Source: an uncultured Vibrio sp. (GTDB lineage: Bacteria; Pseudomonadota; Gammaproteobacteria; Enterobacterales; Vibrionaceae). Taken from it: DNA of 64,000 bases. The stretch is taken from assembly GCA_965140755.1 (NCBI GenBank), contig OZ223360.1, positions 13,280-77,279 of the forward strand, read 5' to 3'. Shown piece by piece: positions 41,694-49,690 of this stretch. A program made the position numbers and the translations under genes. The notes under the pieces were generated by a model. The model made no database searches. It worked only from the letters and a program-made list of their open reading frames with translations, and was not told the DNA's origin. How positions within the stretch are numbered: position 1 is the first letter of the stretch; each line of letters begins with the position of its first letter.

Positions 41694-43373
41694 TTAAAAT
41701 TCACAATCCGCATGGAAGCTCATGCGTTCTTTGCTGTATGGATGATCCAGTTCCAGCATTTCAGCATGCAGGTGCAAGCGATTCGCCTTCTCGCCATACA
41801 GGCCATCACCAACCATAGGCATATTTAAGCCCATGTGATGCGCACTGTGGACGCGCAGTTGGTGAGTTCGGCCAGTTTTAGGGTACATGTATACCTTGCT
41901 ACGGCCGTTTTTGACTTCAATCAACTGCCAGTGCGTCTCTGCTGGTTTACCATGCTCAAAGCACACCAATTGGCGCGGGCGATCTTCTGGGTCGCCGCGC
42001 ATGGGCAATGAGATGTCACCCTCGCAATCCTTGAGTTCACCTTCCAGCAAAGCCATATAGCGTTTTTGTACGCCGCGAGCCATGAACTGCTTCTGTAAGC
42101 TCTTATTGGCGCGTTTGGTCAGCGCAAACACCAAAATGCCTGATGTTGCCATGTCTAAACGATGAATAACAAAAGGCCCTTCAACGTCAGGGAACATCGT
42201 CTGTAGCCTTGTGTACGCCGAATCTTTGATGGTTTTTCCCGGTACAGAAAGCAAACCTGATGGCTTGTTTACGACGACCATGGCCTGATCCTGAAACAGA
42301 ATTTCCAGCTCTTTATCTTCTGCCCAATTTTCAGCCAGCGGGTTTGGTTCGACGTTCATCCCTTGCAGCATATGCCCTAGTATTGGTTGGCACTTACTGT
42401 TGCATGATGGGTAAAACTTTTTGTGCTGGCGTACTTCGGACTTTGGCGATTCCCCCCACCAGAACTCAGCAAGCGCCAAAGGTTTAAAGCCATGTTTAAA
42501 CGCGTATTGAAGCAGTTTCGGCGCGGCACATTCACCTGCGCCTGCTGGTGGCACTGGATTGTTGGTGTTGGCAAAAATATCCACTAAATCCCGTTCTTCG
42601 TCTAAGCCGTTAAGAAATCGGTATTGTTTGTGCAGTTTGTGCTGCAGGGCATTAGATAGTGTTTTACGGCGCTGTTTAAGGTCTGATAGTTGGCGTTTTA
42701 AAGCGGCTAAACGCTGCTCTTTCACTGTCAGTTTTTCCTCCCACGCCATCTTGAGGTATTTGAGTGTGTTTTTCTCAGCCACACTTTGTTTACCCAACTC
42801 GTCTAACAAGGTTTGTAGTTCATCGGGATTCAGTGTTTGCTCACCCTGTTTACGCTGAAGTTTTCGATTCGCGCGACCTTCTATCATGACTTGGCGTTGC
42901 GTATGCTCTTCTTGCTGGTATGTGGCGCGATCCGCTTGAATCTCTGCTTTTAGTTCAATGAACTCTGGGTTTGCCGCAAACTGTTTGCAGTCGGTATTGA
43001 TAGCATTGATGGCGTCGGTTTCTGCACGGAAAAAACCTTCATCTGCCAGCATGTCATACACTGGCGGTACAAACCCAGGCAGCAAGTTTTGATCGGCGAT
43101 CTTACCGGAGAAAGCACTGAGATAACCTAACTCGCCTTTTGTATTTTGCACCAAAAGTACCCCGAACATTTTGCCGCGTCCCGCTTGCTCATCCTCTAGT
43201 CCGAAGTCATGTTCAAAGTCGCTTTGCGTGAGTAAGTGTTGTTGCAGCTGTTCAGCGGCTAATACGCATAGAGGATGTGGTGTGTAATAGAACGGAAACG
43301 TAAACTGCTTTGGTAACTCATAACCAGAAATATCGGCAGTAAAACGAGTAAAACAATGTTCAGGCGAGTGCAT
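41694..43373 (-). CDS. RluA-family pseudouridine synthase, long form with N-terminal extension and coiled coil
   Basis: VVNKPSGLLSVP, VIHRLDMATSG, KTGRTHQLRVH, GDGLYG, LHLHA. Confidence 0.9.
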   Translation of the reverse strand: MHSPEHCFTRFTADISGYELPKQFTFPFYYTPHPLCVLAAEQLQQHLLTQSDFEHDFGLEDEQAGRGKMFGVLLVQNTKGELGYLSAFSGKIADQNLLPGFVPPVYDMLADEGFFRAETDAINAINTDCKQFAANPEFIELKAEIQADRATYQQEEHTQRQVMIEGRANRKLQRKQGEQTLNPDELQTLLDELGKQSVAEKNTLKYLKMAWEEKLTVKEQRLAALKRQLSDLKQRRKTLSNALQHKLHKQYRFLNGLDEERDLVDIFANTNNPVPPAGAGECAAPKLLQYAFKHGFKPLALAEFWWGESPKSEVRQHKKFYPSCNSKCQPILGHMLQGMNVEPNPLAENWAEDKELEILFQDQAMVVVNKPSGLLSVPGKTIKDSAYTRLQTMFPDVEGPFVIHRLDMATSGILVFALTKRANKSLQKQFMARGVQKRYMALLEGELKDCEGDISLPMRGDPEDRPRQLVCFEHGKPAETHWQLIEVKNGRSKVYMYPKTGRTHQLRVHSAHHMGLNMPMVGDGLYGEKANRLHLHAEMLELDHPYSKERMSFHADCEF

Positions 43374-43521: not shown

Positions 43522-44325
43522 ATGTCACAAGCTAGCATTAAATTTATCGCCTCCGATATGGACGGCACGTTACTCGATCAGTACGGTCGTTTAGACCCTG
43601 AGTTCTTCGATGTGTTTTTACGATTAGAAGAAAAAGGGATTATGTTTTCGGCTGCCTCTGGTCGTCAGTACTATAGCTTGCGTGACACTTTCGCTCCGAT
43701 TCAAGACCGCATTCTGTACGTGGCAGAAAATGGCACTTTAGTGATACACAAAGATAAAGAGCTCTATAGCTGTACGATTCCGAAACCTGAAGTCGCTGAG
43801 ATAGTGAAAGCTGCGCGCTGTATTGAAGGGGCGCACATTGTTCTGTGTGGTAAGCGCTCGGCTTATATCGAGATTCAAGATCAAAAGACGTTGGAAGAGT
43901 TTCAAAAGTACTACCATCGTTGTGAAAACGTGGATGATTTGCTGGAAGTTGATGATGAGTTTATTAAAGTGGCAATTTGCCATTTTGAAGGCTCAGAGGA
44001 GCTAGTGTTCCCGTCGATGAACAGCCAGTTTGGTGACTCACACAAAGTGGTGGTCAGTGCAAAAATTTGGTTAGATGTGATGAACGCAAAAGCCTCCAAA
44101 GGAGCGGCCATTGAGTATCTGCAACAAACCATGAATTTTACGCCCGCAGAGACCATGACGTTTGGTGATTACCTGAATGATTTGGAGATGCTGCAAGTGA
44201 GTGAACACTCGTATGCGGTGGCCAATGCCCATGAAGAGATTAAGAAAGTCGCCCGTTTTTCTGCGCCAAGCAACCAGGAGTCTGGCGTACTCGCTGTGCT
44301 GAAAGAGAAATTTCTGTCCGACTAG
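43522..44325 (+). CDS. Cof-type HAD-IIB phosphatase
   Basis: ASDMDGTLL, ASGRQ, SKGAA, FGDYLNDLEML. Confidence 0.92.
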   Translation: MSQASIKFIASDMDGTLLDQYGRLDPEFFDVFLRLEEKGIMFSAASGRQYYSLRDTFAPIQDRILYVAENGTLVIHKDKELYSCTIPKPEVAEIVKAARCIEGAHIVLCGKRSAYIEIQDQKTLEEFQKYYHRCENVDDLLEVDDEFIKVAICHFEGSEELVFPSMNSQFGDSHKVVVSAKIWLDVMNAKASKGAAIEYLQQTMNFTPAETMTFGDYLNDLEMLQVSEHSYAVANAHEEIKKVARFSAPSNQESGVLAVLKEKFLSD

Positions 44326-44406
44326 GTGGACTCATCCCCACTGGTAATGCAAAAGCCCCGCTTGTTGAAGAGCGGGGCTTTTATATGAATGAGCGTTAAC
44401 TCTGTT

Positions 44407-45504
44407 CTATCGGTGGAATTTCATCTTATACATGCGCTTATCGGCGATATTGATAAGAAAGTCTATATTGTCGCTATCCATCGGATATCGCGCGATACCA
44501 ATGCTGGTCGAAAGCTGATAGGCGTTTTCCGCTTTTAGGACAGGATCATCAAACACGGCATTAATATGCTGTTTGATTTCATCTTCATCGATGACTTTGT
44601 CCTCAACGACGATAGCGAATTCATCACCACCCATTCGGTAAGTGGTAAAATAATTGATCTCCATCGACGTTAGCCGACTAGCGATAGCACGTAAAACTTT
44701 GTCGCCTGCTTGATGCCCGTGAGTATCATTTATCTTTTTAAATCCGTTTAAGTCCAGAATACAAAGGTAAAACGTTTTTTTTTGTTGCATGTTTTTTCTA
44801 AGCGTCACAAACAGCGCACTTCGGTTGCCAAGCCTAGTTAGAGGATCGCTGAGGGCCAATTTTCTGTGGAAACTTGATTCGCGGTAAAAGAAGTAAATAA
44901 GTGAGAGTGTCGATAAAACAAACGTCGCAAACAGCATATATTGTGCTTGTACTAGTCGCTGTGTTTCACCTTTTTGTGCCTCATATACTTTGCTGGTGAG
45001 TCGGAAGTTTTGATTTACAAAATCCACTAAGTCCAAGTACAGCGTTTGAGTTGAGCGATAAAACTGAGCTGCTGCTTGACGATCGCCGGTTCTCGCCTCG
45101 ACAAGAAAAGGTTCCAGATCTTTAAACTGTTCGAAGAGTTCTACAAAATACTGCTGGATATTGTTACGCGAAAAGAAAGTGTATGCGTCATCACTGTTGA
45201 TGAGTAAATCAAAGCGACTCCATGCGAGTTCATACTGCAGCTCTGCTCCATTGATATCTTGAATGTTGTCATCGAGCCTACGTGCTTCCCCAACCAGTTC
45301 AGACAGTTCTTTAGAAAGCTGAAACAAAAACCACGTGGCTTGCTTTTGCTCATCAGTAAAGTTTTGCGCTAATGCACGAGTTTGTTGAAGCAACATGACA
45401 TTTGCAAGTAATAAAGAGGTAGCAAAGACTAACAGCAGTGCTTTGCTGAGTGTCGTATATCGCCACTTTTGGGCTATAATTGGGTAGGTGTCTGATAACT
45501 TCAT
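44407..45504 (-). CDS. Two-TM diguanylate cyclase with DcpA-like periplasmic domain
   Basis: SDPLTRLGNR, DLNGFKKINDTHGH, RMGGDEF; periplasmic W58-x7-E66. Confidence 0.9.
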   Translation of the reverse strand: MKLSDTYPIIAQKWRYTTLSKALLLVFATSLLLANVMLLQQTRALAQNFTDEQKQATWFLFQLSKELSELVGEARRLDDNIQDINGAELQYELAWSRFDLLINSDDAYTFFSRNNIQQYFVELFEQFKDLEPFLVEARTGDRQAAAQFYRSTQTLYLDLVDFVNQNFRLTSKVYEAQKGETQRLVQAQYMLFATFVLSTLSLIYFFYRESSFHRKLALSDPLTRLGNRSALFVTLRKNMQQKKTFYLCILDLNGFKKINDTHGHQAGDKVLRAIASRLTSMEINYFTTYRMGGDEFAIVVEDKVIDEDEIKQHINAVFDDPVLKAENAYQLSTSIGIARYPMDSDNIDFLINIADKRMYKMKFHR

Positions 45505-45977
45505 TATTTCTTTATCAATTTAATATTATTCACCTGCCAGACCATTTGAGCATGGTATGCCGAGCGATTTAATTCTGGGTACAGGTTTAGCGGATATACA
45601 ATCCAATATGGGCCTTTGTCTCTGATCTTTATGTAATGTTGGTCTTTTTGATAGGCCAGTATCGGTTGATATTTAACAATATCTGGCCGAGTAACAACCG
45701 CGTGGTAATTGTTTAAACCACCGATATCGATTTTTTCTGGAATATCACCGTACACGTGAGTTAGTAAGGTACTCAGTTTTACACCAGTATACTCTGACTC
45801 CCCTTTACTCCAGGGTAATTCGGTGGTGTAAGTGGTTGAGGGTAACGATTGAATTTCTTCTAACTCCAGCGTAATACTGGATTTTTGCGGACCGTTACTA
45901 AATGAAACGGTATGTGCAGAAATGAGGGGGGCAAAACACAGCAAGCCTAATACGAGTATCTTTTTCATTCTATTCAT
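45504..45977 (-). CDS. PruR-like periplasmic sulfite-oxidase-fold (pterin-binding) protein
   Basis: Signal peptide; TELPW, GVKLSTLL, LNNY, RDKGPYWIVYP, MVWQV; TAATG coupling with the cyclase gene. Confidence 0.75.
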   Translation of the reverse strand: MNRMKKILVLGLLCFAPLISAHTVSFSNGPQKSSITLELEEIQSLPSTTYTTELPWSKGESEYTGVKLSTLLTHVYGDIPEKIDIGGLNNYHAVVTRPDIVKYQPILAYQKDQHYIKIRDKGPYWIVYPLNLYPELNRSAYHAQMVWQVNNIKLIKK

Positions 45978-46369
45978 TTTGGAGTTTTATTCTTTTTTTG
46001 AGCTAGAGTAAGCGACGCTAGCGGTAGTTTTTTAAGTTTTTGATGATTTGAATAAATGGATAAGGTTGCAAAAATATATCGTGTTTGAAAAGTAACCTCA
46101 CGCTTACTTTACGTCAAGGTTATTGGGTGACTTCTTAAATAAATGAGCGATGAAGTGCTGTGATTGTAGGGATATGAGGGCTCTTAGCGTATTTTCAGTA
46201 CCATATAATACAAATAGGTCTAATTATCAATGGGTCATTGTTGGAATCAAATTAACATTTAACACGAATTGTTTAAATTTACTAATATTTGTGATTAATG
46301 AATATATATTCAAAAAGATAAAGCCACCTTAGTCAGGGTGGCTTTATTCTTACGTTATCTTTTATTTAC

Positions 46370-47209
46370 TTACTCGAACAAATACTTGGCATGAAAGTTC
46401 AAATGGTCATCAATAAAGCTCGAGATGAAGTAATAACTGTGATCATAACCTGGTTGCATTCGAAGCGTTAATTCTGAGTCATGCTTGTTTGCTGCAGCAA
46501 TGAGAACTTCAGGTTTAAGCTGTTCACTCAGGAACCCATCGGCGTCTCCCTGATCCACCAGAATAGCCAAAGGTGATTGAGCTTGCTTGAGTAGCTCACT
46601 CGCATCATATTGCTTCCAGTTTTCGATCTCGGTACCCAAATAAGCAGTAAAGGCCTTTTGACCCCAAGGACACTGCATAGGGTTACTGATAGGGCTAAAG
46701 GCTGAGATTGAGCGATACTGATCTGCATTCTTTAAGCCGATAGTCAGTGCACCATGCCCGCCCATGCTGTGGCCAGAAATAGACTTCACATCAGAAACCG
46801 GGAAATTGTTTTCAATGATTGCTGGGAGTTCTTTGGTGATGTAGTCATACATGAAGTAGTGCTGTGACCAAGGTGCCTGAGTTGCATTAAGATAAAAACC
46901 AGCTCCCTGACCGAGGTCGTAATTTTCATCATCTGCCACACCTTCTCCGCGAGGGCTGGTGTCAGGAGCAACAATGGCGATGCCAAGTTCTGCCGCCATA
47001 CGAAATGCGCCAGCTTTCTGCATGAAGTTTTCATCGCTACAGGTGAGACCGGATAACCAATATAGGACCGGGACCGGGTGAGATTTTGTCGCGTTTGGCG
47101 GCAAAAAAATAGCGAAGCGCATTTGGCAGTTAAGTGAACTGGATTCGTGTGTGTATTGTTTGTGCCAGCCACCAAAAACTTTGGTCTGACTAACGTTTTC
47201 AATCATCAT
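46370..47209 (-). CDS. frmB: S-formylglutathione hydrolase
   Basis: [32 protein letters not shown]. Confidence 0.92.
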
Positions 47210-47285
47210 GAATAAACTCTCAAGCAGCAGAAATTAGATTTAACAGATACAATAAGGCTCTCCCTAAGGAGAGCCTGCAGCGATA

Positions 47286-48452
<1,167 letters not shown>

Positions 48453-48820: not shown

Positions 48821-49690
48821 ATGGCGAATTGGGAGGGTGTCACGGAGTTTGTCGCCGTCGCAGAGACAAACAGTTTCACCGGTGCTGCAAATAAACTCAA
48901 AACATCAGTTGCGCAGATCAGTCGCCGAGTGTCCGCACTTGAACAACGCTTGGCCGTAAAGTTGTTGCATCGTACCACACGTAAAGTTTCTCTTTCTGAG
49001 GCGGGGCAGCTTTATTATCAGCAATGTAAACATCTGTTGGAAGGGTTAGAGCTCGCCGAGCTTGCCGTAACCCAAATGCAGGCAGAACCAAAAGGCTTGT
49101 TGCGGGTGACAGCACCAGTTACCTACGGTGAAATGAATCTTGCACCGCTATTACACCAGTTTATAGAGAAGTATCCGCAGGTGAATCTGGACTTGGTACT
49201 AACCAACCAACGACTTGATTTAATCGAAAAAGGGGTGGATGTTGCAATTCGTCTGGGACGATTACAAGACTCAAGTATGATTGCCAAGCGACTCTCTTCA
49301 CGCCAAATGCACGTCTGTGCGAGCCCTAACTATTTAGAACGATTTGGTGAACCTCATACACTCTCAGAGCTGGGGCGTCATCAGTGTTTGGTGGGTTCCG
49401 TTGATTACTGGCATTTCAAAGAGCAGAATAGAGAGAAGTCCTTACGAGTATCAGGACGAATCAAGTGCAACAGTGGTTTCGCTTTAGTGGATGCGGCAAA
49501 ACGAGCGCTTGGTTTGGTTCAGTTGCCGGATTATTACGTTCAAGAGGCGTTAGATAGCGGAGAGTTGGTCGAAGTGCTCAGTGATTACCGAGATGATCGT
49601 GAAGGTATTTGGGCGCTGTATCCACCAAGTCATAACTTGTCGCCTAAAGTTCGATTACTTATCGACTTTTTGGCGAAAGAGTTGGCGTGA
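48821..49690 (+). CDS. LysR-family regulator divergent from frmAB
   Basis: SFTGAANKLKTSVAQISRRVSALEQRLAVKLLHRTTRKVSL. Confidence 0.9.
   Translation: MANWEGVTEFVAVAETNSFTGAANKLKTSVAQISRRVSALEQRLAVKLLHRTTRKVSLSEAGQLYYQQCKHLLEGLELAELAVTQMQAEPKGLLRVTAPVTYGEMNLAPLLHQFIEKYPQVNLDLVLTNQRLDLIEKGVDVAIRLGRLQDSSMIAKRLSSRQMHVCASPNYLERFGEPHTLSELGRHQCLVGSVDYWHFKEQNREKSLRVSGRIKCNSGFALVDAAKRALGLVQLPDYYVQEALDSGELVEVLSDYRDDREGIWALYPPSHNLSPKVRLLIDFLAKELA

Follow-up and report, generated by a model that had tools for sequence, protein, structure and literature searches.

The stretch of DNA analysed here, which we refer to as the window, comprises 64,000 nucleotides of an uncultured Vibrio sp. (contig OZ223360.1, positions 13,280 to 77,279 of the forward strand). 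Between positions 44407 and 45977 it carries two genes, ORF-A and ORF-B, in which a pruR homolog is located directly upstream of a gene for a DcpA-type sensor with a one-base overlap. The genes and the elements that bound them are as follows.

45504..45977, reverse strand: ORF-A, a pruR/vpbA homolog of 157 aa
45915..45977, reverse strand: predicted Sec signal peptide, ORF-A residues 1-21, with a hydrophobic stretch at about residues 6-21 (direct reading)
44407..45504, reverse strand: ORF-B, a CdgA/DcpA-type membrane diguanylate cyclase of 365 aa, GGDEF only
44350..44383, acting in both directions: two-way intrinsic terminator between the cyclase gene and the convergent HAD-hydrolase gene, with a 13-bp G+C-rich stem and a U run
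46318..46347, reverse strand: terminator of the upstream frmB-like esterase gene, which insulates the pruR-cyclase operon
46089..46117, reverse strand: candidate promoter TTGACG-17-TACTTT, within an upstream block shared with V. parahaemolyticus

The ORF-A/ORF-B junction reads AAATAATGAAG (TAATG), so that the TAA stop codon of ORF-A and the ATG start codon of ORF-B share base 45504, in agreement with the coupling described in an earlier note on this DNA. The two genes constitute one translationally coupled operon, which is real and intact. ORF-A has a second ATG at 45968 that lines up with the V. parahaemolyticus start in an alignment of the intergenic regions, L002 being disregarded there because of its wrong orientation; this may be the true start, in which case the residue numbering used here shifts by 3. 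The terminator at 44350-44383 has a predicted energy of -25.8 kcal/mol (z -4.7). The flanking genes encode a pseudouridine synthase, a Cof-type HAD hydrolase, a frmB-like esterase, a frmA-like dehydrogenase and a LysR regulator, all of which are housekeeping genes with no evident functional link to the pruR-cyclase pair, and the module therefore consists of just two genes.

The window shares conserved blocks upstream of ORF-A (46064-46140 and 46015-46035) with V. parahaemolyticus; TTGACG-17-TACTTT lies in one and TACCGCTAGC in another. TTGACG-17-TACTTT scores under the threshold of the sigma-70 scan, and we infer only that this block is a better promoter candidate than the promoter-like match at 46250..46223. 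That match was given no weight and is not evidence of a promoter, because the sigma-70 scan gave fewer sites in the window than in shuffled sequences. The VadR sRNA of V. cholerae targets the vca0075 leader (PMC7695739). With Rfam, the region 44200-46450 yielded no known leader or sRNA, its matches all being below threshold and on the terminator hairpins.

When searched against the PDB, ORF-A matches PruR structures from V. vulnificus (7KOM, VV2_1280; E 3e-36), V. cholerae (7KP2; E 8e-22), A. tumefaciens (7KOS/7KOU; E 9e-17) and Klebsiella (7RKB; E 1e-15), with the matches spanning ORF-A residues 30-155; on sequence, the relationship to solved PruR structures is far beyond chance. The earlier note had described a small SUOX-fold-like periplasmic protein with N89-x-Y91, KGPxW and W147, a description borne out both by these four PruR structures and by a scripted check of N89, Y91, KGPYW at 121-125 and W147; ORF-A also has PW at residues 55-56. 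In HMMER alignments N89, Y91 and W147 correspond to N102, Y104 and W160 of A. tumefaciens PruR, and P55-W56 aligns with the PW of 7KOS. Ten residues do not vary among the 34 Vibrionaceae homologs aligned: P55, W56, N89, Y91, R119, G122, P123, W125, W147 and Q148. N102, Y104 and W160 of the A. tumefaciens protein sandwich and hydrogen-bond the pterin ring, which the equivalent N, Y and W also contact in the complexes from V. cholerae and Klebsiella, and where true SUOX enzymes bind molybdenum through a Cys the PW motif has Trp (Greenwich et al. 2024, PNAS, PMC11194511). Cleavage of the Sec signal is inferred to occur after ISA (ISA|HT), and both the signal and the length of 157 aa fit PruR proteins, which are secreted and of about 150 aa. 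These comparisons support the identification of ORF-A as a PruR-type putative pterin-binding protein with a degenerate SUOX fold.

ORF-B has hydrophobic segments at residues ~18-40 and ~189-207, which leave a periplasmic loop of ~148 aa, within the ~138-150 aa expected of DcpA-type sensors, and it contains the following elements.

44941..45384, reverse strand: periplasmic sensor domain, ~residues 41-188, between TM1 and TM2, a predicted helical bundle
45307..45333, reverse strand: W58-x7-E66 (WFLFQLSKE), inside the invariant block QATWFL..L.KE
44419..44853, reverse strand: GGDEF catalytic domain, residues 218-362 (Pfam GGDEF, E 1.6e-32)
44617..44631, reverse strand: GGDEF active-site motif, residues 292-296, script-checked
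44647..44658, reverse strand: position of the RxxD inhibitory site, occupied by INYF (residues 283-286), five residues upstream of GGDEF

The residues and hydrophobic segments agree with the two-TM cyclase with a periplasmic W58-x7-E66 that the earlier note had proposed. W-x7-E is the defining signature of DcpA (PMC11194511), and the block QATWFL..L.KE that includes W58 and E66 is invariant in 30 aligned homologs, as is a WSRFDL block. An AF2 model of ORF-B (pLDDT 83) has a long helix running through TM1 into the periplasm, further helices leading to TM2, and a GGDEF fold, with helices predicted at residues 9-79, 84-110, 116-137, 142-166 and 172-217; residues 41-188 are all-helical with pLDDT mostly 63-92, as judged from the secondary structure. 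A Foldseek comparison of the full model with the PDB, a check proposed in the earlier note, matched GGDEF domains and gave nothing on the sensor bundle, and a PDB sequence search with residues 1-215 found no match to any solved structure. A phmmer search with the same residues against 1.84 billion representatives returned 41 clusters, most of them GGDEF-only, together with three GGDEF-EAL proteins (646-668 aa) and one HisKA/HATPase kinase (468 aa); the W-x7-E of one GGDEF-EAL relative and of the 468-aa kinase aligns with W58/E66. This set of proteins coincides exactly with the distribution published for the DcpA-type periplasmic domain.

The cyclase site is intact. D251, N259, D268, R290, GGDEF 292-296 and K362 are all present and are invariant in a 30-sequence alignment, so that ORF-B is predicted to be an active cyclase. 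Pfam found no EAL domain, and the protein stops 3 residues past the GGDEF domain, both as expected from the earlier reading of an intact GGDEF without EAL; the lack of EAL places ORF-B in the DGC-only (CdgA-type) subset rather than with DcpA proper. RxxD is found in ORF-B only at 75 and 138, within its periplasmic portion, and with INYF at 283-286 the reported absence of an I-site is also upheld. The weight attached to that absence was too great: RxxD occurs at the I-site position in none of the 30 related Vibrionaceae partners, nor in ORF-B, and among V. alginolyticus GGDEF-only proteins an I-site is found in only about one third (PMC10552763). The missing I-site is therefore no special feature of ORF-B, being common to the whole Vibrionaceae group examined and the majority state among V. 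alginolyticus GGDEF-only proteins.

PruR homologs are present in 70 of 151 sampled Vibrionaceae genomes, and a gene for a Wx7E protein of 337-393 aa comes immediately after the PruR gene in each of the 30 loci that were retrieved. This partner is GGDEF-only in 29 of the 30 loci, as judged from reading frames that end inside the locus, a count that leaves out L029, where the ORF runs off the locus end. Homologs of ORF-B are Vibrio GGDEF proteins of 340-390 aa, and its residues 1-215 are 80% identical to those of the V. parahaemolyticus protein, 51% to those of the V. vulnificus protein (~48% over the full length) and 37% to those of a protein from V. brasiliensis named CdgA by one source. The V. 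parahaemolyticus locus is syntenic, with frmA, esterase, pruR, cyclase and HAD hydrolase genes and the same one-base overlap, and in V. vulnificus the protein that adjoins the orthologous cyclase is that of 7KOM itself (E 2e-89 to 7KOM). The genome from which the window derives has a single PruR gene and a single pair.

Two features of these relatives may be recorded separately. After the V. parahaemolyticus cyclase there is an extra 134-aa ORF without a Pfam match (L035:5102-5506), at a place where the window has only the terminator. Degenerate GGDEF motifs (SSGSQF, YSGAQF, FANDQF, SSGGQF) were counted in 11 of 30 related partners, about a third, with L010, L014, L018, L019, L021, L022, L023, L026, L028 and L029 listed as such loci; in degenerate PruR-linked partners both the cyclase and the phosphodiesterase output are lacking.

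The pair belongs to a published family, PruR-DcpA, known as VpbA-CdgA in V. cholerae; it is already known, and conceptually there is nothing new in it. Apart from the EAL domain, the PruR and DcpA-type sensor features tested for are present, the periplasmic helical bundle as a prediction. More than 5,500 pruR-dcpA pairs have been described (Greenwich et al. 2024, PNAS, PMC11194511), in a study that treats the subset with a cyclase domain alone and the WX7E motif and cites both VV2_1280 of V. vulnificus and VCA0075-CdgA of V. cholerae, and a 2026 review repeats the cyclase-only Vibrio pairs (PMC13259868). Recognition of the locus as PruR-DcpA-like in the earlier note was thus correct, given the PruR structures, the pocket that is invariant in 34 homologs, the W58/E66 alignment and the conserved pairing. 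Its novelty was overstated, since PMC11194511 describes cyclase-only partners in Vibrio, CdgA and the V. vulnificus pair among them, and PMC12422006 reports that CdgA is under pterin control.

The closest of the known systems are V. cholerae VpbA (VCA0075)-CdgA (VCA0074) and the V. vulnificus VV2_1280 pair, which like the window have a secreted PruR-type protein followed by a two-TM, Wx7E, GGDEF-only protein of ~365 aa, and which likewise lack RxxD. The crystallised V. vulnificus PruR (7KOM) is 43% identical to ORF-A. The window derives from a different species, a Harveyi-clade relative (80% to V. parahaemolyticus), and differs in having a one-base overlap where V. vulnificus has a 14-nt gap between the genes, and a single pair in its genome where V. 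cholerae has two (PMC11194511). A. tumefaciens PruR-DcpA (Atu3496-Atu3495) shares the PW, N, Y and W of a degenerate SUOX fold, the WX7E periplasmic domain, a predicted bundle in ORF-B, and the operon order. However, its PruR is similar to ORF-A only at E 9e-17, its DcpA has both GGDEF and EAL domains and acts mainly as a phosphodiesterase in complex with PruR-pterin, whereas ORF-B has no EAL, and A. tumefaciens has the reductase PruA, the signature of which was not found by motif search in the window's genome. [quoted passage not shown] The V. cholerae NspS-MbaA system has the same logic, with an upstream-encoded periplasmic ligand-binding protein docking on a c-di-GMP enzyme at its periplasmic domain (PMC11194511), although the proteins are unrelated to the window pair, having a polyamine-binding SBP fold and a GGDEF-EAL output.

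Homology, residue conservation, topology, gene pairing and the intact catalytic site together make it very likely that the pair is the Vibrio ortholog of PruR-DcpA in its cyclase-only form; most likely, pterin-loaded PruR would dock on the periplasmic bundle and turn the cyclase down. Pterin binding, contact between the two proteins and the sign of regulation in this species would then follow those of the relatives. ORF-A would be exported by Sec; its Y91 and W147 would most likely clamp a pterin ring that N89 hydrogen-bonds. With its ligand in place, ORF-A would dock on the helical bundle of ORF-B, where W58 and E66 are predicted to lie on the first helix after TM1, and docking would shift the arrangement of the transmembrane and signalling helices and, through it, the way in which the two GGDEF domains pair. 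If the A. tumefaciens and V. cholerae systems are a guide, cyclase activity would fall when PruR carries a pterin, giving less c-di-GMP and biofilm matrix, and loss of PruR or pterin would raise both. As there is no EAL domain, the output can only be synthesis on or off, and as there is no RxxD, classical product inhibition is not expected.

The sign of regulation is a separate matter on which we lean towards the downward direction, with pterin-loaded PruR probably lowering the activity of this cyclase, as expected from the A. tumefaciens and V. cholerae results. In A. tumefaciens, PruR with PruA-made pterin turns cyclase activity down and phosphodiesterase activity up (PMC11194511), and according to a 2025 meeting report VpbA (VCA0075) of V. 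cholerae binds CdgA and has been crystallised in complex with it, and dihydroneopterin acts through VpbA-CdgA to reduce c-di-GMP and biofilm (PMC12422006). The statement in the earlier note that ligand and physiology are untested thus holds for this species and not for its relatives. The same module could operate with the opposite sign, such that pterin-bound PruR activates the cyclase and pterins promote biofilm here: measurements of the sign are limited to A. tumefaciens and, by meeting report, V. cholerae, the analogous NspS-MbaA system switches sign with its ligand (PMC11194511), and ORF-B shares only about 37% identity with the relative named CdgA. We consider this unlikely, as PruR with pterin lowers net c-di-GMP in both of the systems tested, and the interface motif and the pterin pocket are conserved.

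Rather less probable is that ORF-A binds a ligand other than a pterin, for example another heteroaromatic metabolite, and reports this to the cyclase. Vibrio PruR proteins form sequence clusters separate from other PruR proteins, and neopterin adopts three alternative poses in crystals (PMC13259868), which suggests that neopterin is not the cognate ligand. The genome, moreover, yields no PruA/FolM signature: in a motif search for the pteridine reductase that the earlier note had proposed to look for, TGxxxRxG was not found in the 94.8%-complete genome, its Arg being present in none of ~15 SDR-like ORFs. Against a non-pterin ligand, N89, Y91 and W147, which correspond to the pterin-ring contacts seen in the complexes of V. 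cholerae and Klebsiella, do not vary, and the genome carries phhA-phhB, indicating that a tetrahydropterin cofactor is in use despite there being no obvious pteridine reductase. V. cholerae is also without PruA (PMC13259868).

The phhA and phhB genes are adjacent (G000:C32:187101-188181; L031, L032) and encode phenylalanine-4-hydroxylase (Biopterin_H) and pterin-4a-carbinolamine dehydratase. The gene for GTP cyclohydrolase I, folE (G000:C63:181793-182322; L037-L039), is present as three consecutive Pfam pieces in three frames, implying two frameshifts, neither of them at a long homopolymer; these could be an assembly error or a broken entry step to pterins and folate. A Pfam FolB (dihydroneopterin aldolase/epimerase) match, found in control genomes, was not obtained in this 94.8%-complete genome and is not taken as absent, and given that completeness we draw no conclusion from either folE or FolB. 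With no PruA/FolM-type signature found and folE reading as frameshifted in the assembly, we raise as a tentative and rather unlikely possibility that this Vibrio makes no pterin signal itself, and that the module would report pterins of a host or of neighbouring microbes, which would shut off the cyclase as an interspecies cue. The idea of a signal from others has been raised for V. cholerae in the 2026 review (PMC13259868).

Two further readings concern the proteins themselves. That ORF-B is catalytically silent, acting as a scaffold or receptor, is very improbable. It draws on the degenerate motifs, such as SSGSQF, of 11 of 30 related partners, on a C-terminus that ends KFHR without the usual GRN tail, and on V. 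alginolyticus cdgA (VA3903), which we think is the ortholog of ORF-B. VA3903 is a 365-aa protein with RxGGDEF and no I-site; its overexpression leaves Congo-red binding at wild-type level, and its deletion gives a mild drop in biofilm, to 60-90% of wild type (PMC10552763). However, RxGGDEF and the metal- and guanine-binding residues of ORF-B are intact and invariant within the clade, and V. cholerae CdgA is an established cyclase (PMC11194511). The notion that ORF-A is an enzymatic molybdenum-cofactor oxidoreductase domain (SUOX/YedY/MsrP-like) with only incidental adjacency to the cyclase, to which a weak Pfam Oxidored_molyb match lends itself, was rejected as having next to no chance of being right, since that match is sub-threshold (E 0.012, 15.7 bits against a cut-off of 24), the protein is of only 157 aa with a truncated pocket, the Trp of the PW motif replaces the Mo-coordinating Cys, the best matches are MoCo-free PruR structures, and the Wx7E partner is conserved in 30 of 30 loci, with the genes here sharing a base.

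The pair in the window is thus most readily viewed as the cyclase-only form of PruR-DcpA, a pterin-to-c-di-GMP module that is intact, single-copy and syntenic in a Harveyi-clade Vibrio. In the Vibrionaceae loci examined, a GGDEF-only partner without an I-site is the usual case. How pterins control a cyclase can be studied in such species against a simple background, free of a confounding phosphodiesterase half and of a second pair.

Elsewhere in the window, a 559-aa protein (41694-43373) has an RluA-type pseudouridine synthase domain at residues 365-512 only, its N-terminal 360 residues being without a Pfam match. At 46370-48434 and 48821-49690 are genes for the frmB-like esterase, the frmA-like class III alcohol dehydrogenase and a divergent LysR regulator; the frmB-like and frmA-like genes correspond to a formaldehyde detoxification pair, and the gene order is kept in V. 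parahaemolyticus.
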